From Escherichia phage vB_Eco_slurp01, in the sequence record LT603033: a stretch of 64,000 nucleotides of DNA; one strand, written 5' to 3'. A program made the translations under genes and the position numbers. Position 1 is the stretch's first letter, and each line of letters opens with the position of its first letter. The notes below the pieces were generated by a model, which saw only the letters and a list, made by a program, of their open reading frames with translations, was not told where the DNA came from and did no database searches. Positions 9,344-23,260 of the stretch are shown piece after piece.

Positions 9344-10015
9344 ATGAAACTTAATGCACACAGCAAACAATACCTTAAGCACTTTAAGTACCTCAATAGT
9401 ATTCAGGCAGAATCAGTTACATCTGCATATACGTATCACCCGAATGTACTAAAGAAACGAAATAAAAAGGAAAAATCCAGTACAAATGGAGTTAACGTAT
9501 CAAAGAACCTTGAATTGTACATGAAGAAAAATAATATAGCTGTTCATTATATGAATATCTATAATACTGATTTAAAAGTATTGAGTACTAATACGAGCAC
9601 AAAGGTACTAAAGAACGCATCCTTCATCATCAATATGCAGTTGGATAATACCCCGTGCACTTTAATGCTATACTTCGGGAATACATACTTCTTCGGGAAT
9701 TGTAACACCTCCCACGATGTCAATACAGCACAATTCCAAATGGGTGGCATATACTCTACTGATGCAGAAAAAGTACACGAGAATATGCACTTCTGGCAAG
9801 CACAACGTACAGAAGAAACTGATACAGTACTGCAATTCCTCAAAGAACTAGAACACAAAGAACTACAGGAAGAAGAACTATTCATGTACAGTACTGTAAT
9901 CGATAATCCAGTACTCTATAAAAACGCGTACAATCTGACAAAACATGTACAGGAAATTATCAGTACTAATAAGAAAATGCATCACCTCATTACGTATATT
10001 ACAAACTATGTATAA
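9344..10015 (+). CDS. Hypothetical protein (223 aa) embedded in family A array
   Basis: ORF track; AAAGGAAA RBS. Confidence 0.55.
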   Translation: MKLNAHSKQYLKHFKYLNSIQAESVTSAYTYHPNVLKKRNKKEKSSTNGVNVSKNLELYMKKNNIAVHYMNIYNTDLKVLSTNTSTKVLKNASFIINMQLDNTPCTLMLYFGNTYFFGNCNTSHDVNTAQFQMGGIYSTDAEKVHENMHFWQAQRTEETDTVLQFLKELEHKELQEEELFMYSTVIDNPVLYKNAYNLTKHVQEIISTNKKMHHLITYITNYV

Positions 10016-10190
10016 AGAATACTACCAAGAACATCTCCCAATGCATCTCCAACACCTTGTACCCAAAGAACCAATAGGAATAAAAGATCACGCAAAAATA
10101 ATGTTCCAACAATGTACTAAGTACACGCTCATATACGATGATAATCCATATATGCTGTACTACGTAGTAATGCTAACATTCAGGTACTAA
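10008..10190 (+). CDS. Small protein, family A (MYKEYYQEHLP...LTFRY)
   Basis: ORF 9945..10190 trimmed to family-type start. Confidence 0.55.
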   Translation: MYKEYYQEHLPMHLQHLVPKEPIGIKDHAKIMFQQCTKYTLIYDDNPYMLYYVVMLTFRY

Positions 10191-10191
10191 T

Positions 10192-10371
10192 ATGCACAAA
10201 CATAAAGAATTCTACCTCTCGTACCTTAATTCCGATATAGTAACATCCAATACCTTCAGTACTAAAATTATCTATAATGAATTAATAAAAGAATGTATTA
10301 AAGGTGCTATTAACCCTAAAGATACGTATGACTTGTACTATGCAGTACTAACCCTTGTTTTCACGAAATAA
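10192..10371 (+). CDS. Small protein, family A (59 aa, below ORF-track cutoff)
   Basis: Own translation MHKHKEFYLSYLN...LTLVFTK. Confidence 0.5.
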   Translation: MHKHKEFYLSYLNSDIVTSNTFSTKIIYNELIKECIKGAINPKDTYDLYYAVLTLVFTK

Positions 10372-10379
10372 CACATAAT

Positions 10380-10571
10380 ATGAATAACCACAAAGAATAC
10401 TACATAGAGAAACTCCCAATGTATCTCCAACACCTTGTACCAAACGTTGCATTGGGTATAGAAAAAAACTACGAAAAAGACTACTTCATTCAGTGCACTA
10501 AATCCTCGATATATATTGACGACTATAATCGAGTACTGTATCACATCCTTTTACTAATATATAGGTACTAA
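10380..10571 (+). CDS. Small protein, family A
   Basis: ORF track. Confidence 0.6.
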   Translation: MNNHKEYYIEKLPMYLQHLVPNVALGIEKNYEKDYFIQCTKSSIYIDDYNRVLYHILLLIYRY

Positions 10572-10572
10572 T

Positions 10573-10755
10573 ATGCACAAAGAATACTACACACAATTTC
10601 TCCCCAGCATTTTTGAACACTACGCCAGATACAAAGTCCCTATGGATAACGATTTGGCAGTACTGGGATTCAATAACTGCATAGAACGAAGTATAGAAAA
10701 TAGTAGTAGTTATGACCAGCTATATAACACTATCCTACTTATATTCAGGTACTAA
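10573..10755 (+). CDS. Small protein, family A
   Basis: ORF track. Confidence 0.6.
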   Translation: MHKEYYTQFLPSIFEHYARYKVPMDNDLAVLGFNNCIERSIENSSSYDQLYNTILLIFRY

Positions 10756-10756
10756 C

Positions 10757-10945
10757 ATGCATAAAGAATACTACACAAAATATTTCCCAATGTACCTCAG
10801 AACTAATCTATTAGATAAACCTCGCGGTATCAATGCACAAAATGATAAAGTGTACTTTACTATGTGCACTAAAGCATGTATACTAGATTTTGACAGCTAT
10901 CATCGAGTACTGTATCATACCCTGTACCTAGCTTTCGTATTCTAA
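10757..10945 (+). CDS. Small protein, family A
   Basis: ORF 10712..10945 trimmed to MHKEYYTKYF. Confidence 0.55.
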   Translation: MHKEYYTKYFPMYLRTNLLDKPRGINAQNDKVYFTMCTKACILDFDSYHRVLYHTLYLAFVF

Positions 10946-10954
10946 GAGAACAAT

Positions 10955-11140
10955 ATGCATAAAGAATTCTACTTAAGCCATCTCGATCTAAACTCCCAAA
11001 TGCTTATACCACTAATCCCAATAGATATCAAGGATAAGAAAAATACCGAACAATTCATTTACCATACACAGTGTGCGATCACCCCAAATTACATTCCATA
11101 TGAATTGTACTACATTATCGCCCTAATATATAGGTACTAA
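10955..11140 (+). CDS. Small protein, family A
   Basis: ORF track. Confidence 0.6.
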   Translation: MHKEFYLSHLDLNSQMLIPLIPIDIKDKKNTEQFIYHTQCAITPNYIPYELYYIIALIYRY

Positions 11141-11141
11141 T

Positions 11142-11327
11142 ATGCATAGAGAATACTACACACAATTTGTTAAAGGGAACTACAAACATGCCGTACCCAG
11201 AACCCCTTTAAATTCTCATGACCCAAGTACTATATTCTTGTTCCATGACGCAATACGTACAGTACTCAATACTAAAGATGAAGATGTGCAGTACGTATTC
11301 TTACTATTACTTATATACAGACACTAA
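11142..11327 (+). CDS. Small protein, family A
   Basis: ORF track. Confidence 0.6.
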   Translation: MHREYYTQFVKGNYKHAVPRTPLNSHDPSTIFLFHDAIRTVLNTKDEDVQYVFLLLLIYRH

Positions 11328-11332
11328 CTAAT

Positions 11333-11542
11333 ATGAATAAAGAACATAAAGAATTCTACTCCAAATACATAAGCCCCTCAGAACAAATGTTTCTAAGGAC
11401 TACTCCACCTTTAAGTACTAATACATTTTTCGGCAGAGTATGCTACAATAATTGTATTCAAATGACTTTAAACGCAAACGAAGATGGTAACAGTACTAAC
11501 CTGTACTCAGGTATCATAGGTATACTATTCCTGTATGAATAA
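11333..11542 (+). CDS. Small protein, family A
   Basis: ORF track; paralog of 7957..8166. Confidence 0.65.
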   Translation: MNKEHKEFYSKYISPSEQMFLRTTPPLSTNTFFGRVCYNNCIQMTLNANEDGNSTNLYSGIIGILFLYE

Positions 11543-11723
11543 TTACAAAGACTTCTATTTGAATACACTACCTACTGTACTTTCTCTAAGTGCTCAATGT
11601 AAAATCCCCCTGGATAATGCTTACGCCAGATATAGCTATTCCATAACTGTTAATCGATGTATAGAGAATCATTGCAGTACTAACCAGTACTATAACATAA
11701 TCCTACTTATATTCAGGTACTAA
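11535..11723 (+). CDS. Small protein, family A
   Basis: ORF track. Confidence 0.6.
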   Translation: MNNYKDFYLNTLPTVLSLSAQCKIPLDNAYARYSYSITVNRCIENHCSTNQYYNIILLIFRY

Positions 11724-11724
11724 T

Positions 11725-11907
11725 ATGAATAAAGAACATAAAGAATTCTATATACGAAAACTAACATTCGTCCCCGTAAGAATATATAAAGAATGCGACC
11801 CAAGATTATACCTATGGCACTTCAATGAGTGCATAAAAGATTCTATATACCCTAAGAACTATAAAGAACAATTGTGCTCAGTACTAACACTAGTACTATC
11901 ATATTAA
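11725..11907 (+). CDS. Small protein, family A
   Basis: ORF track. Confidence 0.6.
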   Translation: MNKEHKEFYIRKLTFVPVRIYKECDPRLYLWHFNECIKDSIYPKNYKEQLCSVLTLVLSY

Positions 11908-11922
11908 TTAATAGAGAATACT

Positions 11923-12123
11923 ATGTATAAAAACTTCTATATAAGTAAACTAAAAGAAAATGAACAAGTATGGATTAGATCTATAATTCCACTGGCATTT
12001 AATAGATATGCATTTAACAGATGTACCGAGATTGCTATAGACCCTTATAATATTAAAGAGAATGTACAGTATAATCAGTATAATCAGTACTACTATATCT
12101 TAATGATTATATATAGGAAGTAA
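11923..12123 (+). CDS. Small protein, family A (last member)
   Basis: ORF track. Confidence 0.6.
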   Translation: MYKNFYISKLKENEQVWIRSIIPLAFNRYAFNRCTEIAIDPYNIKENVQYNQYNQYYYILMIIYRK

Positions 12124-12303
12124 TATAGCTAGGGGAAGCTCCGTAGTGGAAGCATTATACAGGCTTTAACATATGTTGCATATGTTAAAATTCAGCCTGG
12201 ACAAATGCGATCACTAGGATTCTCCCCAGGCTAAACCCCGTAATCATAGGTAGTCATAAGTAATCATATATAAACATTTATATGAGCACCGTAGAATCAC
12301 AGA

Positions 12304-12512
12304 ATGATTATATATGATTCAGTACTGATTAGTATAGACAAGATTGCTCAAGAATGCACGGAAATGTGTGTGAATGATTCAGTACTGATTAGTATAGACA
12401 AGATTGCTCAAGAATGCACGGAAATGTGTGTGAATGATTCAGTACTGATTAGTATAGACAAGATTGCTCAAGAATGCACGGAAATGTGTGTGAATGATTC
12501 AGTACTGATATG
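12304..12512. repeat. Tandem direct repeat, 60-bp unit x ~3.5
   Basis: Unit GAATGATTCAGTACTGATTAGTATAGACAAGATTGCTCAAGAATGCACGGAAATGTGTGT repeated head-to-tail. Confidence 0.9.
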
Positions 12513-12656
12513 CCACTAAGTAGGCAGAGGAAGTCTGCCGTACTTTGTAGTTTCCAAGCTCCTTTTCCATTTTGCAAATTACATCAAATGTAATCAAAAG
12601 TAATCACGCAATGATTAGTACTGAATTATTACTTTCACCTTAATTACAATTACCCT

Positions 12657-12674
12657 TTTACCCTTCGGGGTAAA
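12657..12674 (+). other. Stable hairpin with UUCG-type tetraloop
   Basis: TTTACCC-TTCG-GGGTAAA perfect 7-bp stem. Confidence 0.5.
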
Positions 12675-12885
12675 ATTCAATTACCCCTTGAGGCTCCAGC
12701 AAAAAGTTGGTTAGTACTCCATCCTAAATCTCGATCCTAAAAATTTTGGAGTACCTATGAAATAAAAGTTGGATCTTCGAAAGTTGAAATTTACGTTGGG
12801 ACGTTTATGATTTGTGGGATATAATGATGTTTGTAGTCGGGTAGTTCTCAAGAATATCAGTACTGAATAATGAAAGAAAGCTATT

Positions 12886-12913
12886 GACATTATGATTCAG
12901 TACTGTATAATGT
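12886..12913 (+). promoter_or_regulatory. Sigma70-like promoter in non-coding hub
   Basis: TTGACA N16 TATAAT; no convincing ORF downstream. Confidence 0.5.
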
Positions 12914-13102
12914 TCTACATAGCTTCAAGGGGTGATGAGTTGCTGCGAACAATTCATTTACTCTACCTCCTGTCGTGAGACAGTACAGAAAAGATAGTTC
13001 CTCCTGTGGTGGTACATCTTTTTGAACCTCATATGAAAATCGTAATAACAGTACTGATATTAACAGAATGGTGTCAGTACTGATTTTAATCTAAAGCATT
13101 AT

Positions 13103-13122
13103 ACCACCAGCTTGTGCTGGTG
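13103..13122. other. Palindromic hairpin made of two inverted Chi octamers (CCACCAGC-TTGT-GCTGGTGG)
   Basis: Read directly; perfect 8-bp stem. Confidence 0.6.
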
Positions 13123-13238
13123 GATTCCCTCTAACAGTATTCAGTACTACATGATGGTCTTCATCCTCCTAGGGTAACATAGTGAGGGCTATGATGGCAG
13201 TACTGAATACTCCCTTTCAAAAGATAGATCTATGGTAT

Positions 13239-13440
13239 AGTACTGACGGATTTTGGGTGTAGTTACCCTGGATGGATTTTGGGCGTAGATATGTCTAGCC
13301 CTCCAGAAGTCTGGAAGTAAAGATGGCTATCCATCTAGACGGCTAAACGGCTAGATTTCTGGATGGCTGGATGGCTAGACGTTTGGACGGCTAAACGGCT
13401 AGATGGTTACACGTCTGGAAGTATAGACGGCTAAATCAAA
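13239..13440. repeat. Iteron-like cluster of short direct repeats
   Basis: GACGGCTAAACGGCTAGAT x2, GGATGGCT x3, TCTGGAAGTA x2, ATTTTGGGCGTA x2-3; AT-rich tract follows at 13441-13460. Confidence 0.6.
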
Positions 13441-14060
13441 ATTTTATTTTGTTTTTCCAATAGTTCCCCTACCGCGTGGGGATAGTTTCCCCGCAGTATC
13501 TGGAGTTAGATTTTTCTGAATCTGGAATCATTATCTTATAAACTGGGGGCAATGTCAACGACCTGGACGGATATTTTTAAAAATTTTTTCAGTACTGAAT
13601 TTTGGGCGTAACTATGCACCCGGTGGGCTTGAGTCTTTCTCGACTTGATGGAACTATTATACAGTACTGGAAAAATAAAGCAATACCCTGGATGAAAAAA
13701 GTTTTAATTAATTTGCTTGCCATCCTGGGCCGGACTATGGTACTATAATTCAGTACTGAGAAAGTGCGTTAACCTGCTAGGGTGCGGGAGTGTATCCTTT
13801 TTTTATATCTTGAATTTTGGACGGATCTTCCCACCCCCTGGGGTATCCGCTTTCTCGCGTCTATGTAGTAATTATACGCTTTTTCAGGATCAAGTCAATA
13901 CCTAAAAACAAAATAATTGAAAATAATTTAACGCGTTTAAACGGCCCGTAAAGCCCTGGAATGATTGGAATGGTGCAAATGTATAGCTTGGGTGTATTAA
14001 TGCGTTAGAATGCGTCTGAGGCCGTTTTACGGGGTGTAGTAGTGATTTGGTGGATTGATT

Positions 14061-14215
14061 CAGTACTGAATAATAGTACTCCTATATAGAAAGATAGTTC
14101 CCCTGGATGGTTGCAGTACTGAATAATAGTACTCCTATATAGAAAGATAGTTCCCCTGGATGGTTGCAGTACTGAATAATAGTTCCCCTATATAGAAAGA
14201 AAACTATTTTAAAAG
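14061..14215. repeat. Tandem direct repeat, 53-bp unit x ~3, immediately upstream of first early promoter
   Basis: CAGTACTGAATAATAGTACTCCTATATAGAAAGATAGTTCCCCTGGATGGTTG repeated. Confidence 0.85.
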
Positions 14216-14231
14216 TATTTGTAGAAAGTAC

Positions 14232-14259
14232 TTGCAAACTATGTTTAACGGCGTATAAT
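14232..14259 (+). promoter_or_regulatory. Early promoter, sigma70-like
   Basis: TTGCAA N16 TATAAT. Confidence 0.7.
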
Positions 14260-14272
14260 GTTTTACATCGAG

Positions 14273-14291
14273 AGCGGGAACACTTCCCGCT
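14273..14291 (+). other. Promoter-proximal hairpin (AGCGGGAA-CAC-TTCCCGCT)
   Basis: 8-bp stem immediately downstream of predicted start site; member of the recurrent hairpin class. Confidence 0.6.
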
Positions 14292-14314
14292 ACATATTAC
14301 GAGAGATTAAAACG

Positions 14315-14677
14315 ATGGCGACTCAAATCACTAAAATTATTGCTAACCTGGTTAACTTTCGCGACGAGATGAAAGATCTTCCGGCAGAAACGGTAAAAAT
14401 TCACATTGCAGCTTATCGGGAACTTATTGCAATGTTACCTCTTAAGCGTGAACAATACGCCGCTACCGTGATGCTTGATGCGATGATCCATAAGATGATC
14501 GCCAGTGATTTAACGATGGTTTATCAGTATATGGGCGAAAATTTCGCGGTGTATAGTAAACCAGTACCAGGAATGGAAAGTACAGAAGTATTACACGGTT
14601 TAAATTTAAAACAAGATGCATGGGATAATATGCCTCGTTTCCTGGTATGGGCTGACAGTGGCAAAATTTACGAATAA
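14315..14677 (+). CDS. Hypothetical early protein (120 aa)
   Basis: ORF 14258..14677 trimmed: upstream ATG lies inside the -10 element; GAGAGA RBS before MATQITK. Confidence 0.7.
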   Translation: MATQITKIIANLVNFRDEMKDLPAETVKIHIAAYRELIAMLPLKREQYAATVMLDAMIHKMIASDLTMVYQYMGENFAVYSKPVPGMESTEVLHGLNLKQDAWDNMPRFLVWADSGKIYE

Positions 14678-14691
14678 GTTTAATAAAGTAC

Positions 14692-14719
14692 TTGCAAACT
14701 ATGTTTAATGGCGTATAAT
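14692..14719 (+). promoter_or_regulatory. Early promoter
   Basis: TTGCAA N16 TATAAT; hairpin GTGGGGAA-TAG-TTCCCCAC at 14732-14750. Confidence 0.7.
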
Positions 14720-14770
14720 GTTTTACATCAGGTGGGGAATAGTTCCCCACTATATAAGAGGATTAAAAAA

Positions 14771-15010
14771 ATGGCTAAATCAAAAATGTTCTTAGGTCAC
14801 AAAAACAAAACTCATTGGAATGTAAGCCTTTGGATTAATAACGATGAATCATTATACCGGTTGGCCCTGGACTTTATTGCCGCCAATACTAATCGCAATG
14901 ATGCGGCCCGTCATATGATGTTATTTTTAGAACAGACTGGACAAGATAAAACACCGGACGGATTCAAATATAGCACTACTGCGATCCGTGCGGCAATGGT
15001 TGGAATGTAA
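14771..15010 (+). CDS. Hypothetical early protein (79 aa)
   Basis: ORF 14708..15010 trimmed to ATG after AAGAGGA RBS. Confidence 0.7.
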   Translation: MAKSKMFLGHKNKTHWNVSLWINNDESLYRLALDFIAANTNRNDAARHMMLFLEQTGQDKTPDGFKYSTTAIRAAMVGM

Positions 15011-15032
15011 TAGAATAGAATTTATTTAAAGT

Positions 15033-15061
15033 ACTATTGCACGGGGATAGTACTTTATAAT
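15033..15061 (+). promoter_or_regulatory. Degenerate early promoter (TATAAT present, -35 region shortened)
   Basis: Aligns with the promoter at 26483-26511 but has a deletion in the spacer. Confidence 0.4.
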
Positions 15062-15098
15062 AGTGTTTTATTCATACACCAACGATAAGGGCAACAGC

Positions 15099-15365
15099 AT
15101 GAATATTAAGTATTTTGCGACGCGTGAACAAGCTCGGATCGCCGCACGCCAGGACGGGGCAACGTTTAAAGATATGGGCGTACAATCGGAACGTGGTAAA
15201 CGTTGGGCCATTGTAAAGCGTAGTACCGCCAGATCATTACAGTACTGGTTAGCGGCCTTAAAAAGACCCGATAGTGTATCGCGACGAGTGGTAGAAATAA
15301 AGCTCGACCGAAAGGGCAACCGCGTGACCGTGTACCGTACTAAAAAGATTGCAGTACTTGAATAA
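15099..15365 (+). CDS. Hypothetical early protein (88 aa); paralog of 26556..26951
   Basis: Trimmed ORF; shared KYFATREQARIAAR...FKDMG...RKGNRVTVY. Confidence 0.7.
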   Translation: MNIKYFATREQARIAARQDGATFKDMGVQSERGKRWAIVKRSTARSLQYWLAALKRPDSVSRRVVEIKLDRKGNRVTVYRTKKIAVLE

Positions 15366-15373
15366 AAAGTACT

Positions 15374-15400
15374 TGCAAACTATGTTTAAAGGCGTATAAT
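15374..15400 (+). promoter_or_regulatory. Early promoter
   Basis: TTGCAA N15 TATAAT; hairpin GCGGGAA-CTC-TTCCCGC at 15415-15431. Confidence 0.7.
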
Positions 15401-15452
15401 GTTTTACATCGAGAGCGGGAACTCTTCCCGCCTATAACCTGGAGTAATAAAA

Positions 15453-15683
15453 ATGACTAATATGTATATGACTGAAGTTAAAACCGTAAAAGATACTACC
15501 ACGAATAAAACTACTTACTTACAGCGGATCTGTGGTGTATGGCAACGTATCAGCAAATCAAAGTACTTTAAATTAACATCATATGCAAACCGTTCGGATT
15601 CATTCAGTACTGAAATAAAAGGTAATAAAGTACACCAATACGGCACTTATTATTATTATAGCCTGGACGCGATTGCAGTATAA
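15453..15683 (+). CDS. Hypothetical early protein (76 aa)
   Basis: ORF track; GGAG RBS. Confidence 0.65.
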   Translation: MTNMYMTEVKTVKDTTTNKTTYLQRICGVWQRISKSKYFKLTSYANRSDSFSTEIKGNKVHQYGTYYYYSLDAIAV

Positions 15684-15713
15684 GCAGTTTACAAATCTTT
15701 ACAATTGCCGGTA

Positions 15714-15742
15714 TTGACTTATTTTGTCAGTACTGGCATAAT
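15714..15742 (+). promoter_or_regulatory. Promoter driving a non-coding stretch
   Basis: TTGACT N17 CATAAT; no ORF over 25 aa follows. Confidence 0.5.
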
Positions 15743-15744
15743 GT

Positions 15745-15925
15745 ATTCATTGGCAGATAAGCCGTAGCCCATAGGGTGCGGGAGTGTATCTATAGAAAAA
15801 GTAGTTTATTACAGTTACAATTGTGCACCCGGTGGGTTAGCTGTTGTCATGGGGTATATTATGCCAGTACTGGATAGTGCTGTCAATACCTTTTTACTAT
15901 TCAGTACTGAAAACTATTTTTAAAA
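15745..15925 (+). ncRNA. Candidate small non-coding RNA
   Basis: Promoter-driven, no ORF; contains inverted copies of the CCCAYNGGGTGC motif that could pair. Confidence 0.3.
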
Positions 15926-15930
15926 AGTAC

Positions 15931-15958
15931 TTGCAAACTATGTTTAAAGGCGTATAAT
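15931..15958 (+). promoter_or_regulatory. Early promoter (upstream member of a tandem pair)
   Basis: TTGCAA N16 TATAAT. Confidence 0.7.
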
Positions 15959-15965
15959 GTTTTAC

Positions 15966-16040
15966 ATCAGGACGGGGAACGAAATAAGTAACTCCCCATT
16001 AAGTAGCCCAGGAGTAAGGCACACGAAAAACTCCCCTGAT
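15966..16040 (+). other. Conserved ~75-nt structured leader element (copy 1 of 3)
   Basis: ATCAGG...CCTGAT closing helix plus internal GGGGA/TCCCC stem-loop; near-identical copy at 25361-25433, related copy at 18275-18385. Confidence 0.5.
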
Positions 16041-16047
16041 AAAATAG

Positions 16048-16076
16048 TTTGAAAATTGTTTTTAAAAGCGTATAAT
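16048..16076 (+). promoter_or_regulatory. Second promoter of tandem pair
   Basis: TTTGAA N17 TATAAT. Confidence 0.5.
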
Positions 16077-16108
16077 ACTTACATCAACTACTGAATGAGG
16101 GTTACAAA

Positions 16109-16720
16109 ATGAAAACTATCACTACTACTACTTTCGTTATGGATTTTTCTGAATTGAACGCAGAACAAAAAACGTCAGCTATCGAACTGGTTCGGGAACG
16201 TGAAAAAAACTCAAACGACAATTATTTTTCTGAAAGTGAAATTGAATACTATAAAGAAACAGTACTACCGGAATATGGCATTAATGACGCTGAAATACAA
16301 TTCAGTGGTTTTTGGTCCCAGGGTGACGGTGCATCAATCAGTACTGACCACGTTGACGCAGTGAAGTTTTTACGCAAGGTAAGAGCATTAACTAAGTATC
16401 GCTCAATCCGTCACCTGCTGAATGAAGATGATTTGGCGATGAGTGTAAAGCGTTCTCACTCTCACTACTCGCATGAGAACACTGTAAGCGGGTACATTGA
16501 ATCGGCTTACACTGATTTAACCGCAAAACAAGAAACGTTAGTTAATGAGCTTGAGGAACTACTCACTGAAACTATTCGTGAATTGTCACGCAAGTTGTAC
16601 CGTGATTTAGAGAATGCATATGAGGATCAATTCACTACTGAAAACATCGTAGCACTGATTGAGGGTAACGAGTATCAATTCAATGTTATTGATGGCGTAG
16701 TAGAATCAATCGAATATTAA
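16109..16720 (+). CDS. Hypothetical acidic protein (203 aa)
   Basis: ORF track; GAGGG RBS. Confidence 0.75.
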   Translation: MKTITTTTFVMDFSELNAEQKTSAIELVREREKNSNDNYFSESEIEYYKETVLPEYGINDAEIQFSGFWSQGDGASISTDHVDAVKFLRKVRALTKYRSIRHLLNEDDLAMSVKRSHSHYSHENTVSGYIESAYTDLTAKQETLVNELEELLTETIRELSRKLYRDLENAYEDQFTTENIVALIEGNEYQFNVIDGVVESIEY

Positions 16721-16732
16721 TTCAAAAAGTAC

Positions 16733-16760
16733 TGGACACTAAGCAATAAAGGCGTATAAT
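16733..16760 (+). promoter_or_regulatory. Early promoter
   Basis: TGGACA N16 TATAAT; hairpin AGCGGGAA-TAG-TTCCCGCT at 16774-16792. Confidence 0.6.
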
Positions 16761-16812
16761 ACTTTATATCGAGAGCGGGAATAGTTCCCGCTACTAATGA
16801 GGAATACTACAA

Positions 16813-16977
16813 ATGAATACTTTTACCTTCGCTCAATTGAACGCCCTGGATGTATTGTCTGATGCTTTGCGGGATGCAACTGAAAGCGGTTTATTTGACA
16901 ATGTTGACATTCACCCTGATGTAATTAATAATTTTTGTGATGCTATCGCAGAAGTACTGGAAGATCTAAAAAAATAA
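16813..16977 (+). CDS. Hypothetical small protein (54 aa, below ORF-track cutoff)
   Basis: Own translation MNTFTFAQLNALDVLSDALRDATESGLFDN...; GAGGAA RBS; promoter upstream. Confidence 0.5.
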   Translation: MNTFTFAQLNALDVLSDALRDATESGLFDNVDIHPDVINNFCDAIAEVLEDLKK

Positions 16978-16987
16978 TAGAAAGTAC

Positions 16988-17015
16988 TTGCAATTAGTTT
17001 TTAGTACTGTATAAT
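16988..17015 (+). promoter_or_regulatory. Early promoter
   Basis: TTGCAA N16 TATAAT; hairpin 17028-17047. Confidence 0.7.
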
Positions 17016-17065
17016 AGTTTACATAGAGGGGAGAAATGGTTCTCCCTGGTAATGAGGAAAATAAA

Positions 17066-17287
17066 ATGGCTAATATCACTACTCTTTCTCAACTGGAAGC
17101 ACTGGTTAAATCTATGCGGGAACATGCAGACAATATCGGCGTAAAAGATCCAGCCGTTTGCTTCTGCGACGAAATGAATGATGATACACTGGTAATAGCA
17201 GAAGTACAAGATATTTCTAACTATTCATCGCGTTACACTGGCGGCGTAGCAAATAAAGGTGACTTCTGTTTATACCTTACCAAATAA
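17066..17287 (+). CDS. Hypothetical early protein (73 aa)
   Basis: ORF 17036..17287 trimmed to MANITTLS after GAGGAAAA RBS. Confidence 0.65.
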   Translation: MANITTLSQLEALVKSMREHADNIGVKDPAVCFCDEMNDDTLVIAEVQDISNYSSRYTGGVANKGDFCLYLTK

Positions 17288-17292
17288 CAACG

Positions 17293-17322
17293 CGGGGAGA
17301 TAATAACTCCCCGTTACTTTTT
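17293..17322 (+). terminator. Intrinsic terminator
   Basis: CGGGGAG-ATAATAA-CTCCCCG then TTACTTTTTC. Confidence 0.7.
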
Positions 17323-17455
17323 CAGTACTGAATCATTTAATAGACGGATCTCGGCACCCTGTGGGTTAGTGACTGTATCGTCTTTATGTAGTAATTATGC
17401 CAGTACTGGATGCACTTGTCAACAACTATTTTTCAAATACTTTTTATTAAAATAC

Positions 17456-17483
17456 TTGCTAATAGTTTTTAAACGCGTATAAT
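17456..17483 (+). promoter_or_regulatory. Early promoter
   Basis: TTGCTA N16 TATAAT; hairpin GGGGAG-CGG-TTCCCC at 17494-17508. Confidence 0.6.
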
Positions 17484-17529
17484 GTTTTGCATAGGGGAGC
17501 GGTTCCCCTGGTAACTAAGGAATAAGAAA

Positions 17530-17766
17530 ATGCTTGAACAAATCAAATCAACGTCTGCTAATGTAACGGGAACGGTATCACACTTTATTGGTGATGAATC
17601 GCGGGGCGTTCCCTATTGTGCTGTACATGTAAACACTGAGGGTAACTACTGGTTTACGGTTTACGGATCATATTCATTTGGACGGCCAGGGCATCAAAAA
17701 ATTCTGGATAAAGTACAACCAACGGGTAAAAATATCACTGCCGAAATGTTTTATAAAAAATCATAA
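17530..17766 (+). CDS. Hypothetical early protein (78 aa)
   Basis: ORF track; TAAGGAATAAG RBS. Confidence 0.7.
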   Translation: MLEQIKSTSANVTGTVSHFIGDESRGVPYCAVHVNTEGNYWFTVYGSYSFGRPGHQKILDKVQPTGKNITAEMFYKKS

Positions 17767-17771
17767 AGTAC

Positions 17772-17799
17772 TTGATAATAGTTTTTAGTACTGTACAAT
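17772..17799 (+). promoter_or_regulatory. Early promoter
   Basis: TTGATA N16 TACAAT; hairpin GGGGGAG-CGG-TTCCCCC at 17814-17830. Confidence 0.6.
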
Positions 17800-17850
17800 A
17801 TTTTACATCGCACGGGGGAGCGGTTCCCCCTGGTAACTAAGGATAATCAA

Positions 17851-18150
17851 ATGAAAATTGCAATCATCGCCCTGGCTTTATCTGTTTCCTCTTTCGCTGT
17901 TAACGCGTCGTTAGATGTACCTAGTGAAAAATTCATTCAGTGTACTGTTGCGATGACAGATGAAAGTACTGGCGAGATTGTTTTAAAGGATTTAGAGATC
18001 CAGTCAGAAGCATTTAAAAGCGGCCCGTTCCATGAAGAAGACGAAAAAGGTAGCACGACAATTTATTACGATGTAAGTACTAAGCGTGGATCGGTCACGG
18101 TTATGGATACTGAGAAAGTAACGCACACCGGAGTAATTAACTGTTTATAA
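17851..18150 (+). CDS. Putative secreted/periplasmic small protein (99 aa)
   Basis: N-terminus MKIAIIALALSVSSFAVNA|S has signal-peptide character (basic n-region, hydrophobic core, AxA site). Confidence 0.7.
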   Translation: MKIAIIALALSVSSFAVNASLDVPSEKFIQCTVAMTDESTGEIVLKDLEIQSEAFKSGPFHEEDEKGSTTIYYDVSTKRGSVTVMDTEKVTHTGVINCL

Positions 18151-18167
18151 TATAGTACTGAATCACT

Positions 18168-18196
18168 AGCCCACCTTAAACAGTGGGCTTTTTTGT
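18168..18196 (+). terminator. Intrinsic terminator
   Basis: AGCCCAC-CTTAAACA-GTGGGCT + TTTTTT; identical copy at 18894. Confidence 0.8.
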
Positions 18197-18238
18197 TTTG
18201 TAGTACTGCATACTTTAAAAATAGTTTTAAAAAAGTAG

Positions 18239-18266
18239 TTGACATTACCACAAAAAGGCGTAGAAT
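18239..18266 (+). promoter_or_regulatory. Early promoter with long structured leader
   Basis: TTGACA N16 TAGAAT; ~110-nt leader 18275-18385 related to 15966 element. Confidence 0.65.
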
Positions 18267-18389
18267 GTATTACATCAAGACGGGGAGCACTAAGTAGACC
18301 GCCAGTAAGTCGAACGAAAAACTGGACACGTCGATAAAACTTTGATACACTAATAAACGTAAACTAAACTTTAATTGAGGATTTATAAA

Positions 18390-18872
18390 ATGGCTAATGT
18401 AAAATCATTCCTGAAAGCACTGATTTCAAACGATACTGTTATTGCTGCTGAATTGCTGGCTGAACTGGATAACGATACAATGAAAGCGGTACGCAACAAT
18501 TTTAACATTGCGTACAGTGAAGCTAAAGAACTGCAAGCCAAAAAGGTAGCAGAACTGGAAGAACAGAAAAAAGCCCGTGAAGCAGAACTACAAGCAACAA
18601 TTGAAAGTATTCAGGCGGCAGTGTCTGGATTGGATCTGGAAGTGGTTGTAGAAATGGCACATAAAGCCCTGGCGGTTAAGTACGGTGAAGATAAGCCGGA
18701 ATCTAAACCTAAAAAATGGATTCAAGAACGTGTTACTGTAGTACTTGATAACGGTGAAGAACATTTGATTCCTGTACGCGGTAACTGCATTGCGGTAGTA
18801 CTGGACGCTATCAAAGAAAGCGGTATGACTCGCGAGGAATGGATCGAAGCTCATCGCAAAGTTGAAGCATAA
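18390..18872 (+). CDS. Hypothetical protein with predicted coiled-coil N-terminal half (160 aa)
   Basis: ORF 18375..18872 trimmed to MANVKSF after GAGGA RBS. Confidence 0.7.
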   Translation: MANVKSFLKALISNDTVIAAELLAELDNDTMKAVRNNFNIAYSEAKELQAKKVAELEEQKKAREAELQATIESIQAAVSGLDLEVVVEMAHKALAVKYGEDKPESKPKKWIQERVTVVLDNGEEHLIPVRGNCIAVVLDAIKESGMTREEWIEAHRKVEA

Positions 18873-18893
18873 CAATTAAAGTACTGAATCAAT

Positions 18894-18921
18894 AGCCCAC
18901 CTTAAACAGTGGGCTTTTTTG
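18894..18921 (+). terminator. Intrinsic terminator (duplicate of 18168)
   Basis: Same hairpin + T-run. Confidence 0.8.
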
Positions 18922-19074
18922 TGTCTATAGTATTCCAGTCCACTAGCACCGCCTAGAATCGATTCTAACGCATTAAACTGATTATCTGATACATCGCCCT
19001 AGCTGGTGGCGTTAAGGTCGTTAGAAAGCGATTGAGAGTGTTTAAAGTATTTTGCAAAAAGTAATAAAAAGTAC

Positions 19075-19102
19075 TTGCATGATTAAGAGATTAGCGTATA
19101 AT
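19075..19102 (+). promoter_or_regulatory. Early promoter
   Basis: TTGCAT N16 TATAAT; hairpin ~19115-19132. Confidence 0.65.
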
Positions 19103-19156
19103 GTTTTACATCGAAAGGGGAAACGGTTCTCCTTCCAAATCAAAGGAATCAAAACA

Positions 19157-19384
19157 ATGGCTATTATCATTACTCGCGTATCTGGTACTACTGGCAATTC
19201 TTCTACTGTTGCAGTCATTACTAACAAGGCAGGTGCGGAATTGCAAAATGCAATGAATACCTGGGCCGTTAATGAGTTCGGTCAGTGGGCAAGTGTAGCA
19301 TACATTGAAACCTATCAAGTGCCGACCATTAGTTTAACGGATCTTGGTGTGGAACGTATCCTTTGCTTGGATGAATTAAATTAA
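19157..19384 (+). CDS. Hypothetical early protein (75 aa)
   Basis: ORF 19052..19384 trimmed to MAIIITRV after AAAGGAAT RBS. Confidence 0.65.
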   Translation: MAIIITRVSGTTGNSSTVAVITNKAGAELQNAMNTWAVNEFGQWASVAYIETYQVPTISLTDLGVERILCLDELN

Positions 19385-19392
19385 AAAAGTAC

Positions 19393-19420
19393 TTGCAAAG
19401 TAAATCGAATAAAGTATAAT
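19393..19420 (+). promoter_or_regulatory. Early promoter
   Basis: TTGCAA N16 TATAAT; hairpin GGGGAGAA-ATGA-TTCTCCCC at 19433-19452. Confidence 0.7.
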
Positions 19421-19469
19421 ACATTACATCAAGGGGAGAAATGATTCTCCCCACTACAAGGAAACTAAT

Positions 19470-19613
19470 ATGAAAACTTGTCAATGTGGTAAAAAATCTA
19501 TTACTGGTTTAAAGCGGGGCGTTGCTCTTTGCCAGTACCATTATAATTTACAAGTATGGGGTAAAGAATGGGCCGACCAGGTGGAAGCAATTAAGAAAGC
19601 AAAAAGTAAGTAA
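19470..19613 (+). CDS. Small Cys/His-containing protein (47 aa), possible zinc ribbon
   Basis: Own translation MKTCQCGKKSITGLKRGVALCQYHYNLQVWGKEW...; below ORF-track cutoff. Confidence 0.45.
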   Translation: MKTCQCGKKSITGLKRGVALCQYHYNLQVWGKEWADQVEAIKKAKSK

Positions 19614-19632
19614 AAATATTATCACAGTACTA

Positions 19633-19661
19633 TTGACATAGTTTGATAGTACTGGCATAAT
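19633..19661 (+). promoter_or_regulatory. Early promoter (class without downstream hairpin)
   Basis: TTGACA N17 CATAAT. Confidence 0.7.
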
Positions 19662-19702
19662 AGATTTTATCAAGACAACATATTAATTTAAGGAATACTA
19701 AA

Positions 19703-20026
19703 ATGGCTAAAACTATCATTAACACCGTTTCCCTGGCTGCAATCCGTGCAATCAATGTTGACGGTAAACGTTGGACTGATTCATATGGCAATACTTATCA
19801 TTCTTGTCATGTAAGCGTCGAACTGGATAACGGTTTGAATGTTCTGGCGGTTGAATCATTTACTTATGGCTATGAAGATGCATATCAACAAACGGCGTTA
19901 GATCTATTAAAGGAATCAGTAGACGGGCTTAATACTGATGAAACCTCCCTTACTCGTTTGTGCAATGATCTTAATATCCCGTTGCATTGTACTGTACAGA
20001 ATGTTAAACGCAAAAAAGATCTTTAA
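19703..20026 (+). CDS. Hypothetical early protein (107 aa); paralog of 26137..26460
   Basis: ORF track; shared RWTDSxGNTYHSC...FTYGY...VKRKKD. Confidence 0.75.
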   Translation: MAKTIINTVSLAAIRAINVDGKRWTDSYGNTYHSCHVSVELDNGLNVLAVESFTYGYEDAYQQTALDLLKESVDGLNTDETSLTRLCNDLNIPLHCTVQNVKRKKDL

Positions 20027-20106
20027 TTAGCTTTACTTTATGCAGATACTTTGATATAGTGTCTGCATAGGGGAAAGAAATTAAATTAACTTAAGAGGAT
20101 CGTATA

Positions 20107-20376
20107 ATGAAAAATATCAGTACTTTAATCGATGCAGGTACACATGTTCGGCGGTCTATGGTTGCAACCAGTACTACAAAACAAGTAGCAAGCGGTTATC
20201 TTGTATTTGTGCACGATGGTAAACTCCTGGAACGTTCAATCAATTTTGATGTTAAAAACAATTGCCGTTTTATTATCTTTAAGCGTGAACAATATAAAAT
20301 TGATTTGCCAGCGAAGCCCATTAGCGGGGCGTACAACGTGCAATCATTGTTTGAGCGTCAACCATACACCTATTGA
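20107..20376 (+). CDS. Hypothetical protein (89 aa)
   Basis: ORF track; AAGAGGA RBS. Confidence 0.65.
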   Translation: MKNISTLIDAGTHVRRSMVATSTTKQVASGYLVFVHDGKLLERSINFDVKNNCRFIIFKREQYKIDLPAKPISGAYNVQSLFERQPYTY

Positions 20377-20427
20377 TCAAATCATCGTTAGTGGTCGATT
20401 TAGGCCGCTTATATTGGGGATTATACC

Positions 20428-20700
20428 ATGAACGTTAATCAAGTACTAAATGAAGTTGAAAGCATCATTAAACCAATGAAACGTATTGATGCAATGCTAA
20501 CACCGGAAGAATGCCGCCTTTATGAGCGTTACAGCGTCGAACAAGTCCAGGCGATGGCTATGGCTACCCCTGCCGTTAAACAGCCTGAGAATGCGTTACA
20601 GGACGTTACAGGGGATTATATCATTAATCCAGTACTAGGGAAGATTACACCAATCACCGAAGAAGAAAAAGACTACTTAAGCCAGTACTTAAAAGGTTAA
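20428..20700 (+). CDS. Hypothetical protein (90 aa)
   Basis: ORF track. Confidence 0.6.
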   Translation: MNVNQVLNEVESIIKPMKRIDAMLTPEECRLYERYSVEQVQAMAMATPAVKQPENALQDVTGDYIINPVLGKITPITEEEKDYLSQYLKG

Positions 20701-20705
20701 TTAAT

Positions 20706-20915
20706 ATGCTTACTGTACAGGATAAGATCGACATCTTAAAGGTTAATATGTATGTGATTGATGCAGATCCTGAAAAAGTATTTGCATACGATGATTCTAA
20801 TCGTAGTCCTTTTTATTGTAGTCATGTAGTTGGATACGTGCCGTTAGCGTATGTTATCGAAAGAGTGGTTGATTCAGCATACAAACATTTTTTAGAAAAT
20901 AATACTTGCAATTAG
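20706..20915 (+). CDS. Hypothetical protein (69 aa)
   Basis: ORF track; stop lies inside the next promoter. Confidence 0.55.
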   Translation: MLTVQDKIDILKVNMYVIDADPEKVFAYDDSNRSPFYCSHVVGYVPLAYVIERVVDSAYKHFLENNTCN

Positions 20916-20933
20916 TTTTTAGTACTGTATAAT
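20906..20933 (+). promoter_or_regulatory. Early promoter
   Basis: TTGCAA N16 TATAAT; hairpin ~20946-20967. Confidence 0.7.
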
Positions 20934-20984
20934 AGTTTACATGAAGTGGAGAAATAGTTCTCCCCACTAATTAAGGAATATGAA

Positions 20985-21131
20985 ATGAAAGCATCAAAAA
21001 AGAGTACTAATAAGAAAGCACGTTCAACTTTAGATGGGGTATTCCCTTTGCGTTTTGTGGATGAAGTGGTTTCCTACCCGCTGGGGCTTACTCCTGAGAT
21101 GGTAGAAAGTTTACGTAAATCTAAAAAATAA
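20985..21131 (+). CDS. Hypothetical small basic protein (48 aa)
   Basis: Own translation MKASKKSTNKKARSTLDGVFPLRF...; below ORF-track cutoff. Confidence 0.45.
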   Translation: MKASKKSTNKKARSTLDGVFPLRFVDEVVSYPLGLTPEMVESLRKSKK

Positions 21132-21134
21132 TAC

Positions 21135-21162
21135 TTGCAATTAGTTTTTAGTACTGTATAAT
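21135..21162 (+). promoter_or_regulatory. Early promoter
   Basis: TTGCAA N16 TATAAT; hairpin 21175-21194. Confidence 0.7.
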
Positions 21163-21212
21163 AGTTTACATGAAGGGGAGAAATGATTCTCCCCAAGAAC
21201 AGGAGAAATAAA

Positions 21213-21365
21213 ATGAAACAATATAATGCTCGGTTTGATGTTACTATCGGTAACGGTAAAGGTCAATTTTCTTTCAGTACTCGACGCAGTTATACAGAAA
21301 ACTTCCTGCGTAATTGTGCACTGACCGCCGCTCAAATTAAACATTATTTTCAGGCTAAAAAATGA
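21213..21365 (+). CDS. Hypothetical small protein (50 aa)
   Basis: ORF 21183..21365 trimmed to MKQYNARF after AGGAGAAA RBS. Confidence 0.55.
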   Translation: MKQYNARFDVTIGNGKGQFSFSTRRSYTENFLRNCALTAAQIKHYFQAKK

Positions 21366-21451
21366 AATCATTAGCTTATTACAGTTCGGCCCTGGTCGTT
21401 GCATTGATCGCGGCGTTGTTAGTAACCTATCTATTCTTTATGGTGATTTAA
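21362..21451 (+). CDS. Tiny hydrophobic peptide (29 aa), predicted single transmembrane helix
   Basis: Own translation MKSLAYYSSALVVALIAALLVTYLFFMVI; ATGA coupling. Confidence 0.35.
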   Translation: MKSLAYYSSALVVALIAALLVTYLFFMVI

Positions 21452-21589
21452 ATGAATCCTAACGGTATAATTTACAGTACTCCTAAAACGAAAGCAGACA
21501 AGGTAAACGCTAAAAAAGCGAAAGTAAAGGAGTACATCAAGCAAGGCATGACGCGAAAGGCGGCGATTCTAAAAGCTAAAAATAAATGA
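21452..21589 (+). CDS. Small basic protein (45 aa)
   Basis: Own translation MNPNGIIYSTPKTKADKVNAKKAKVKEYIKQGMTRKAAILKAKNK. Confidence 0.4.
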   Translation: MNPNGIIYSTPKTKADKVNAKKAKVKEYIKQGMTRKAAILKAKNK

Positions 21590-21595
21590 AAAAAG

Positions 21596-21720
21596 TGGTT
21601 GACTTCGGTCAGCCATTTTGCTATTATATATTCATTGAGAGATAGCTCACTAGCCCACAGGGTGCAGGAGTGTATCTATTGTATAATGTTTGAGTACTGA
21701 AAACTATTTTTAAAAAAGTA
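21596..21720 (+). repeat. Repeated intergenic module (hairpin overlapping TTGACT-N17-TATTAT promoter + CCCACAGGGTGC motif), copy 1
   Basis: Other copies at 25196-25320, 28463-28600, 30726-30870. Confidence 0.7.
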
Positions 21721-21721
21721 C

Positions 21722-21749
21722 TTGAAAACTATCTCAATTGGCGTATAAT
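21722..21749 (+). promoter_or_regulatory. Early promoter
   Basis: TTGAAA N16 TATAAT; hairpin 21764-21780. Confidence 0.65.
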
Positions 21750-21800
21750 GTTTTACATCGCAAGGGGAAACGGTTTCCCCTGGTAATAAGGAAACGAATC

Positions 21801-22142
21801 ATGACTATCTCAATTGCTCAATCTAACTTTGAAAATGAAATCATCGCCCAGGTACTGCGTTTAAATGATGGTCGGGCCGAAATTAATTACGGTTTCAATT
21901 CAGGCGGTTGTGAAAACTATCAGTACTTTGTAACGGCTGATGGCGGTGTCCTGGGCATCAATACAGTTATTGTAAACATCCAAAAAATTAATTTCAATGA
22001 TCCAGACGATAGCCAGTTTTACATCACTGGCGTAGACGTGAACTATGAGGATGACTCACTAACTGATGATTACACTGGTGAGCGGTTAGAAAGTGCTTAT
22101 GGTGAAGATGATTATCAGTCAGTACCGGAAGATTTCGAATAA
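21801..22142 (+). CDS. Hypothetical early protein (113 aa)
   Basis: ORF 21738..22142 trimmed to MTISIAQ after AAGGAAAC RBS. Confidence 0.7.
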   Translation: MTISIAQSNFENEIIAQVLRLNDGRAEINYGFNSGGCENYQYFVTADGGVLGINTVIVNIQKINFNDPDDSQFYITGVDVNYEDDSLTDDYTGERLESAYGEDDYQSVPEDFE

Positions 22143-22155
22143 TATAAAAAATAGT

Positions 22156-22183
22156 TTGACAATAGATTATAGTACTGTATAAT
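22156..22183 (+). promoter_or_regulatory. Early promoter
   Basis: TTGACA N16 TATAAT; hairpin GGGGAGAA-TAG-TTCTCCCC at 22196-22214. Confidence 0.7.
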
Positions 22184-22234
22184 AGTTTACATCAAGGGGA
22201 GAATAGTTCTCCCCACTAACAGAGAAAAAACAAA

Positions 22235-22447
22235 ATGGCTAATATCCGCACTGTACTGAAAAATGCAAAACAAGTTTTATTTTCTGATCATGATACTTTC
22301 AACAAGGATATTACTGGCGTTCGGAATATCAAAGATGTAAAAAGTGTTATGGGTATCTATTGCAATATGAAACGTGTTGGAACGTTCGGCGACAAAGTAC
22401 TATACCAGGCAGGGGATTACAATTTTACACTGACTATCATTAACTAA
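22235..22447 (+). CDS. Hypothetical early protein (70 aa)
   Basis: ORF track. Confidence 0.7.
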   Translation: MANIRTVLKNAKQVLFSDHDTFNKDITGVRNIKDVKSVMGIYCNMKRVGTFGDKVLYQAGDYNFTLTIIN

Positions 22448-22466
22448 AAATATTATCACAGTACTA

Positions 22467-22495
22467 TTGACATAGTTTGATAGTACTGACATAAT
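22467..22495 (+). promoter_or_regulatory. Early promoter (no-hairpin class)
   Basis: TTGACA N17 CATAAT. Confidence 0.7.
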
Positions 22496-22530
22496 AAGTT
22501 TTATCAACTACACTACTAAGGAATTAAAAA

Positions 22531-22710: not shown

Positions 22711-22737
22711 AATATATTACCAGTACTATTAAAGATA

Positions 22738-23256: not shown

Positions 23257-23260
23257 TATA

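Follow-up and report, generated by a model that had tools for sequence, protein, structure and literature searches.

In phage operator clusters such as lambda OR/OL, neighboring short palindromes lie beside or overlap core promoter elements and are helically phased; the spacer between the −35 and −10 elements is a classic operator position. The left end of T7 combines a leader of ~0.5-0.9 kb and a 160-bp terminal repeat with short repeats and the tandem host-polymerase promoters A1-A3. In the long terminal repeat of T5, untranslated repeat regions are conserved among T5-like phages, and the neighboring ORFs are not (10.1101/866236). The PeSL cassettes of T4-type phages, which consist of an early promoter and a stem-loop, act as recombination substrates (PMC2839356, PMC4122927).

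The locus considered here is a tandem array of 53-bp units in a stretch of 64,000 nucleotides from Escherichia phage vB_Eco_slurp01 (LT603033), referred to as the window. The window is that of an Asteriusvirus, a PBECO4/121Q/G17-like jumbo coliphage, and the region is 90-98% identical to Asteriusvirus phages such as PBECO4, 121Q, G17 and fEgEco12. The array is a recent, polymorphic amplification of a promoter-derived module that carries the signature box of this phage group. Quite possibly, judging from sequence comparison, this copy-number-variable box cluster binds a box-recognizing factor and tunes the adjacent promoter, P1.

By analogy, the closest counterpart of the region as a whole would be found in T5, whose terminal repeat has untranslated repeat regions, among them that of the injection stop signal. 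Both phages have a long (10-20 kb) direct terminal repeat with σ70-driven small early genes. However, the untranslated region of slurp01 lies at the start of the repeat before the first gene, whereas that of T5 lies at the inner end; the slurp01 leader is without DnaA boxes, its 53-bp array is not a deeply conserved block, and two-step injection is not known for its phage group. For the individual unit, the alignment points to the PeSL cassette as the closest analog. Near-identical cassettes of a σ70 promoter and a stem-loop precede many small ORFs in a plastic region, and the 53-bp unit aligns with the spacer/−10 module of these cassettes and ends in the 3′ half of their stem, TAGTTCCCC. By contrast, the units are without a −35 element and the 5′ stem half, flank no ORF, and are arranged head-to-tail. 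Given that the defining −35 element and stem-loop are missing, the unit was not classified as a PeSL.

Resemblance to two further systems is partial. As in operator clusters of the lambda OR/OL type, the slurp01 palindromes are short, present in several neighboring copies, helically phased and near or overlapping promoters, but their hexamer AGTACT is also ~10-fold enriched inside genes, the number of sites is polymorphic, and the cognate protein is only putative. The left end of slurp01, like that of T7, is the one likely to enter first and has a non-coding leader in which short repeat arrays and strong host-type promoters precede the first gene; it differs in that its repeat is ~20 kb long and the units are not demonstrable promoters.

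The anatomy of the array was established with two programs. Tandem Repeats Finder (TRF) reported a period of 53 at 14061-14200 (2.6 copies, 97% matches, score 266), and a second, independent repeat search returned three in-register copies at 14051-14103, 14104-14156 and 14157-14209, with identities to the reference copy of 100, 94 and 77%, respectively. Three tandem 53-bp repeats, as proposed in a preliminary description of this DNA, were thereby confirmed; the period given there is real, but the unit quoted comprises 50 nucleotides and is missing a TTG. The sequences 14061-14113 and 14114-14166 are identical 53-mers, which excludes chance as their source and implies that the duplication is recent. 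The arrangement is therefore that of a minisatellite, with head-to-tail, in-register copies of one unit, and the second half of unit 3 diverges into an A+T-rich stretch that reaches P1. The coordinates of these and other features are collected in Table 1.

Table 1. Features of the array and its surroundings (window coordinates)
Feature	Position	Strand	Description
Tandem array, three 53-bp units	14051-14209	+	TRF and repeat search
Array in the register of the preliminary description	14061-14113, 14114-14166, from 14167	+	Third copy diverged
Box 1	14059-14070		Perfect 12-bp palindrome TTCAGTACTGAA, 14-bp form ATTCAGTACTGAAT, then AATAATAGT
Box 2	14112-14123		TGCAGTACTGAA, then AATAATAGT
Box 3	14165-14176		TGCAGTACTGAA, then AATAATAGT
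UP-like stretch GAAAACTATTTTAAAAGTATTTGTAGAAAG	14195-14226	+	81% A+T, between unit 3 core and −35
Promoter P1	14227-14259	+	AGTACT flank 14227-14232; −35 TTGCAA 14232-14237; 16-nt spacer; −10 TATAAT 14254-14259
5′-UTR stem-loop AGCGGGAA-CAC-TTCCCGCT	14273-14291	+	Downstream of P1, repeated along with promoter
First early gene	14315-14677	+	120 aa, PHROG 7352, function unknown; 363-nt CDS in relatives
Single-copy unit relative TCAGTACTGAATAAT-GAAAGAAAG	12857-12880	+	Starts 27 bp upstream of −35 of promoter 12884-12911
Direct terminal repeat (DTR)	12519-32218		19,700 bp; homology with G17 and six records starting here
Untranslated repeat-rich leader	12519-14231		1.7 kb, left end to P1; colinear blocks kept across genera
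Perfect 60-bp array, 3.3 copies	12314-12509	+	Just outside DTR
Type A promoter (P1-like)			AAAGTAC-TTGCAA-N16-TATAAT-GTTTTACATC + stem-loop
Type B promoter			AAGTA-TTGACA-N9-AGTACTG-TATAAT-AGTTTACATCAA + GGGGAGAA..TTCTCCCC stem-loop

Each unit contains AGTACTGAATAATAGT and a dyad-symmetric site of operator size, which is ATTCAGTACTGAAT in the first unit and TGCAGTACTGAA in the other two, where CAGTACTGAAT is retained and the left arm is degenerate. The boxes follow one another at 53 bp, or ~5 helical turns. Two AGTACT palindromes per unit had been described; this holds for units 1 and 2 (sites starting at 14062, 14075, 14115 and 14128, the second sites spanning 14075-14080 and 14128-14133), but unit 3 has one (14168), its second site having been lost to AGTTCC. 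The array is not a gene or a structured RNA on the evidence obtained. A − strand ORF at 14082-14237, annotated in some relatives, consists of repeat sequence, and its length tracks copy number, as expected of a spurious call. The + strand RNA of the array folded no more stably than shuffled sequence (z = −0.27), and the value of −2.0 for the − strand is attributable to the palindromes. An Rfam scan of 11500-17500 gave a single noise match (a miRNA family, E = 0.91), and no tRNA was found by ARAGORN.

To compare copy numbers, sixteen Asteriusvirus genomes were examined from a conserved upstream anchor to the first gene, and units were counted in the deposited assemblies. A single unit was counted in G17 and 121Q and two in most genomes; JNE01 and the window each have three. 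Copy number also varies, from 1 to 3 across relatives, for a 13-bp sub-repeat, AGTACTGAATRAT. Within the 15 internal units of 13 genomes, CAGTACTGAA, TATAGAAAGATAGTTCCC and GGAT are invariant; the second AGTACT, often lost, and the unit junction are variable. Since close relatives carry from one to three copies, multiplicity is not essential, and the array is probably an amplified regulatory box that the phage can do without, not an element of a new kind. No tandem array precedes the first AAAGTACTTGCA-type promoter in the leaders of Klebsiella phage fENko-Kae01, Alcyoneusvirus Muenster or Eneladusvirus pEa_SNUABM_12; in fENko-Kae01, one loosely unit-like stretch is found there (AATAAT..AGTACT..TATAT..A-rich..AAAGTACTTGCA).

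These observations bear on the main rival to a factor-binding array, a neutral minisatellite: a functionless product of slippage or unequal recombination of promoter-like (PeSL-type) sequence, tolerated in the leader. The identity of units 1 and 2, the variation of both the unit and the 13-bp sub-repeat among relatives and the lack of an array in other genera all fit such an origin. The window phage also has the largest copy number of a second, 60-bp array, which suggests an expansion-prone lineage, and cassettes of the PeSL type are known recombination substrates (PMC2839356, PMC4122927). Nevertheless, at least one unit is always there, with a box and a TATAGAAAGA core that do not vary between genomes, and boxes of this class are clustered non-randomly at the left end and inside promoters. 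A purely neutral array is thus conceivable but rather unlikely.

The derivation of the unit is apparent from the early promoters. Within the DTR, a strong σ70-type promoter stands ahead of nearly every small gene, and two families dominate (types A and B in Table 1). The spacer/−10 module AGTACTGTATAATAGT is present in seven full σ70-type promoters of the DTR, and the array units are one base away from it. The 16-mer AGTACTG[AT]ATAATAGT occurs 10 times on the + strand, namely in the 3 array units and in 7 type B promoters (17003, 20921, 21150, 22171, 25797, 26067 and 28928), which have their −35 element at 16-nt spacing. In the units, no −35 element is present at 16-18 nt, where CCCCTG or TCCCCT stands instead. 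Given this lack together with the homology to the promoter module, the unit is best described as a degenerate, −35-less copy of an early-promoter cassette. With only the spacer/−10 module and half of the stem kept, the units would be at most degenerate PeSL derivatives.

The same homology could mean that the units are tandem weak promoters or RNA polymerase landing sites, with AGTACTG-AATAAT acting independently of a −35 element or feeding P1, much as A1-A3 are arranged in tandem at the left end of T7. The −11A and −7T of the module are kept, and the array is at the end that probably enters first, a place at which a strong capture of polymerase would be of importance. Against this, AATAAT is accompanied by no −35-like hexamer at the required distance, the TG is out of the extended −10 register, and a consensus promoter scan of 14051-14226 returned no site on either strand. 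We therefore consider it improbable that the units initiate transcription or recruit polymerase.

The position of the array relative to the genome end was deduced through homology with relatives. The G17 record carries an exact DTR of 20,668 bp, whose inner boundary corresponds to window position 12519; position 1 of G17 is the other DTR boundary and corresponds to 32218. Six further records (vB_Ec-M-J, BF17, fEgEco12, ELP-22, E9.1 and CRJP21) open exactly at 12519 (AGTAGGCAGAGG...), so that, G17 included, the left end is fixed to the base by seven related records. The termini of fEgEco12 were obtained with PhageTerm and confirmed by restriction digests (PMC13070987), and the same 20,668-bp repeat was found in Sharanji by PhageTerm (PMC11895373). 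On this homology, 12519 corresponds to the left-hand physical terminus of the packaged DNA, and 12519-32218 to the terminal repeat. Given that both boundaries fall inside it, the window spans the junction and shows the genome with its repeat collapsed. From the left end it is 1,532-1,542 bp to the start of the array and 1,713 bp to the −35 element of P1.

No credible gene was found in the leader (12519-14231) with the crude gene calls used here; annotators of relatives differ on tiny ORFs or call none. From the left end inward, it comprises a terminal hairpin, a conserved inverted repeat (12713-12755), a promoter matching the consensus at 12 of 12 positions (12884-12911), a hairpin made by two CAGTACTG boxes (13049-13082), an inverted Chi pair (13104-13123), an 8-bp-periodic array (13334-13433), convergent promoters around a terminator (13717-13898) and then the 53-bp array, which is on the P1 side of a divergent promoter region. 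Other promoters are present on both strands of the leader. Colinear leader blocks, at similar distances from the annotated left ends, were identified in fENko-Kae01, Muenster and pEa_SNUABM_12; the first of these phages shares only ~29% similarity with Asteriusvirus across the genome (PMC13070987). The cross-genus blocks do not include the 53-bp array.

Just outside the DTR lies the 60-bp array, the last CAGTACTG box of which ends 11 bp before the terminus, the terminase cut position. The sequence TGATTCAGTACTGA...TATAGAnAAGAT is common to its unit and the 53-bp unit, and the alignment of the two scored 38 compared with a mean of 13.6 and a maximum of 28 for shuffled sequences. This array, which is a candidate packaging-recognition element, also varies in copy number, with 0-4 boxes upstream of the terminus among relatives. 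AGTACT is absent at the right DTR boundary, and the box is therefore not a common mark of both boundaries.

A T5-like cis site for genome-end DNA transactions (packaging recognition, an ejection pause or a replication origin) is a very unlikely role for the 53-bp array, even though it lies in the conserved untranslated leader of a long DTR, a related array is next to the terminase cut site, the sign of the GC skew switches at ~12 kb, and in T5 the untranslated regions of the terminal repeat, which are conserved, are presumed to work in cis (10.1101/866236). The array is 1.5 kb from the cut site, its copy number is variable, and it does not belong to the blocks conserved across genera. A scan of the leader for DnaA, IHF, GATC and Chi sites found none within the array. 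Replication-origin iterons in particular were rejected: the leader has no DnaA boxes, its single IHF-like site (13434) is outside the array, and no initiator gene is nearby.

Several other features were observed around the genome end. The inverted repeat at 12713-12755 (AGTACTCCATCCTAAATC...GGAGTACC), ~200 bp from the left end, is 93% conserved in fENko-Kae01 (86-128, with a second partial copy) and partly conserved in pEa_SNUABM_12. The 8-bp-periodic array at 13334-13433 consists of ~12 units of CTGGATGG, CTAGACGG, CTAAACGG and similar sequences; at the DNA level it is matched at 70-86% in jumbo phages of other genera as well as in T5-like phages of Vibrio and Aeromonas, and the matching stretch is close to the record start in PGT2, a T7-like phage, and in several jumbo phages. 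Strong convergent promoters with CAGTACTG in the spacer, ~170 bp apart, occur as a module at 13717-13898, 15714-15886 and ~17277-17422. Two of these modules have in common the 19-mer TAGGGTGCGGGAGTGTATC (13778 and 15772), which forms a terminator hairpin in the 13717-13898 copy. The module, which may encode a pair of small antisense RNAs, is also conserved in RaK2, K64-1, Muenster, fENko-Kae01 and pEa_SNUABM_12.

Chi (GCTGGTGG) has 9 sites on the + strand, all within the DTR, where 0.19 would be expected per strand in the whole window, and only 2 on the − strand. Chi positions are the 13104-13123 pair, 19002, 22975, 24020, 25288, 27636, 29051, 30629 and 30851. The inverted pair forms a hairpin ~0.6 kb from the left end that is annotated as a terminator in G17. 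In fENko-Kae01, 12 sites are on the + strand and 2 on the − strand, the same inverted pair included. This orientation fits a shielding of both genome ends from RecBCD. On the other side of the terminus, 8000-12000 holds sixteen small + strand ORFs with a GC skew of −0.14 to −0.23 and a high AT skew, unlike the + strand genes beyond 12 kb, the sign flipping at the terminus. Five consecutive paralogous ORFs of ~370-430 aa with RCC1-like β-propeller repeats occupy the − strand at 258-7440, against an otherwise + strand gene order.

Promoter P1 is one of four near-identical promoters, P1-P4 (14227, 14687, 15368 and 15926), each flanked by an AGTACT that abuts the −35 element. Their assignment as promoters, and their early timing, follow from consensus matches and from analogy with phage CBB (PMC5259590). 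P1-P4 are σ70-type promoters followed by a stem-loop and repeated ahead of small ORFs, and P1 with its stem-loop is thus a PeSL-like cassette. P1 had been called the first early promoter, and it is indeed the first with a protein gene after it, but the promoter at 12884-12911 lies nearer the genome end. The array is near P1 as described; it does not strictly abut it, because the A+T-rich stretch 14195-14226 and the AGTACT at 14227 intervene. That stretch contains a 13-bp micro-repeat and recurs at other early promoters (15909-15925; from 28576), and in P4 the same segment is directly against the −35 element.

The A+T-rich stretch is close to the UP-element consensus (Estrem et al. 1998, cited in PMC5259590), and it is the only, non-repeated, UP-like part of the region. 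That the repeated units form an UP-element or enhancer array contacted by the α subunits of RNA polymerase, as had also been suggested, is scarcely credible despite this neighbor, given that they are 62% A+T, contain CCCCTGGATGG, and have their boxes centered some 95 to 200 bp before the inferred start of P1 transcription, too far away for an UP element (−40 to −60). As a separate observation, the segment comprising P1, the 5′-UTR stem-loop and the ribosome-binding region (14216-14319) has ~80% DNA matches in unrelated ~145-kb coliphages such as PHB05, ECGD1 and inny, which suggests that promoter cassettes have been exchanged between phage families.

The box itself is not specific to the array. 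AGTACT palindromes characterize the genome as a whole and the wider phage group: 264 sites were counted in the 64 kb of the window compared with 21.6 expected, a 12-fold excess, and the next most enriched palindromic hexamer is 2.7-fold over expectation. Enrichment rises from 3.2-fold for GTAC through 5.7-fold for AGTAC and 12-fold for AGTACT to 86-fold for CAGTACTG; compared with shuffled sequences, CAGTACTG occurs 55 times where 0.69 is expected (~80-fold). GGTACC, CGTACG and GAGTACTC are absent from the window. By a crude ORF call, 170 AGTACT sites are inside ORFs, in all three reading frames, and the remaining 94 are in the non-coding 19% of the window. Density is highest in the leader (9.9 per kb), followed by the rest of the DTR (6.3), the region upstream of the terminus (4.3) and the region beyond the DTR (2.5). 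The 12-bp form TTCAGTACTGAA was found 23 times with at most one mismatch (0.31 expected), 16 times between 12318 and 17332.

In the DTR, ~40% of AGTACT sites occupy two promoter positions, either abutting the −35 element or just before the −10 element. The latter is exemplified by at least six strong promoters with CAGTACTG in the spacer (TTGACA-N8-CAGTACTG-G-CATAAT). Sites of this kind are thus in or next to core promoters. Spacing between AGTACT sites showed a weak 20-22 bp peak only, which is explained by the two promoter positions. Comparable enrichment was found in the fENko-Kae01 record (1-22000), with 17-fold for AGTACT and 53-fold for CAGTACTG; the leaders of Muenster and pEa_SNUABM_12 are likewise rich in the box, and an exact 17-mer, ATTCAGTACTGAATAAT, lies in the leader near the Muenster terminus. 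The published promoter tables of phage CBB do not carry the box. No account of these promoters, the repeats or the AGTACT motif was found in the literature on PBECO4, 121Q, phAPEC6, Sharanji, fEgEco12, RaK2 and PA5oct, and a full-text literature search for CAGTACTG returned only unrelated primer sequences.

Taken together with these distributions, the binding array envisaged in the preliminary description remains the best reading, and a plausible one, once reframed as an amplified, promoter-derived box cluster. The binding-cluster reading is based on the operator-size dyad, the overlap of the box with core promoter elements elsewhere, the 53-bp spacing on one face of the helix and the single-copy unit relative upstream of another leader promoter. 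The array would constitute a tandem amplification of a control sequence just upstream of P1 in the DTR leader, having arisen by slippage or unequal recombination without being essential. Each unit, as a −35-less replica of the early-promoter spacer/−10 module (AGTACTG-AATAAT-AGT), would supply one strong CAGTACTG box, often a second AGTACT and also the CTGGATGG motif, which is otherwise almost confined to the leader.

We infer that the boxes are bound by a protein, presumably the same sequence-specific factor that would read the AGTACT/CAGTACTG boxes in or beside the early promoters; the identity of this factor and the direction of its effect on P1 are likewise put forward as predictions. It would most likely be a phage protein acting as a dimer, by which early transcription is modulated or shut down. 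Stacking at 53 bp on the same DNA face could raise local occupancy next to P1, and this occupancy would tune the first gene of the first-entering end. Given that early promoters must fire on naked incoming DNA, a phage-made regulator acting later is favored, with a virion-borne or host factor as a possible alternative.

Several findings count against a regulatory cluster at P1. Between one and three copies are carried by 16 viable relatives, and the second AGTACT is often lost; selection on multiplicity is therefore weak. Genera with the same leader architecture are without the array. A Pfam search of 30 DTR ORFs and 20 larger ORFs elsewhere in the window detected no helix-turn-helix or other DNA-binding domain. 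Moreover, ~60% of the AGTACT sites of the DTR are outside the promoter positions, which, with the many sites in ORFs, implies that the box may serve something besides transcription. A broader and somewhat doubtful interpretation would make the array the local peak of an “AGTACT-box” system in several Rak2-like jumbo-phage genera, read by a phage- or virion-borne protein to switch early transcription or to mark phage versus host DNA. The traits of such a system are the 12- to 17-fold excess of the palindrome, the ~50- to 85-fold excess of CAGTACTG, placement in promoters at approximately −40 and −17, clustering near the first-entering end and a scatter over genes in all three frames.

The result is real but modest, being a further example of polymorphic repeats in the untranslated terminal region of a long-terminal-repeat phage. 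As a polymorphic amplification in a non-coding leader, the array is of little weight by itself, and the more interesting leads are contextual, namely the AGTACT-box promoter architecture and the side observations. Through it, a phage-specific layout of early promoters comes into view, in which Asteriusvirus and related jumbo phages have AGTACT both beside the −35 element and within the spacer. It also draws attention to the untranslated leader, 1.7 kb long and conserved, with which the ~20-kb terminal repeat begins at the physical left end. The occurrence of 1, 2 or 3 units among relatives provides a natural allelic series for probing the box reader, and should there be a regulator that binds the box, the array would be the most suitable bait with which to identify it.

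The products of the early region were also searched for known domains. By PHROG and Pfam, the first five early proteins are of unknown function. Further along, 23588-23842 encodes a DksA/TraR zinc finger, 27014-27265 a ParE-like toxin domain and 27872-28453 a protein with a weak, below-threshold protein-kinase match; the first and last of these may act on host RNA polymerase.
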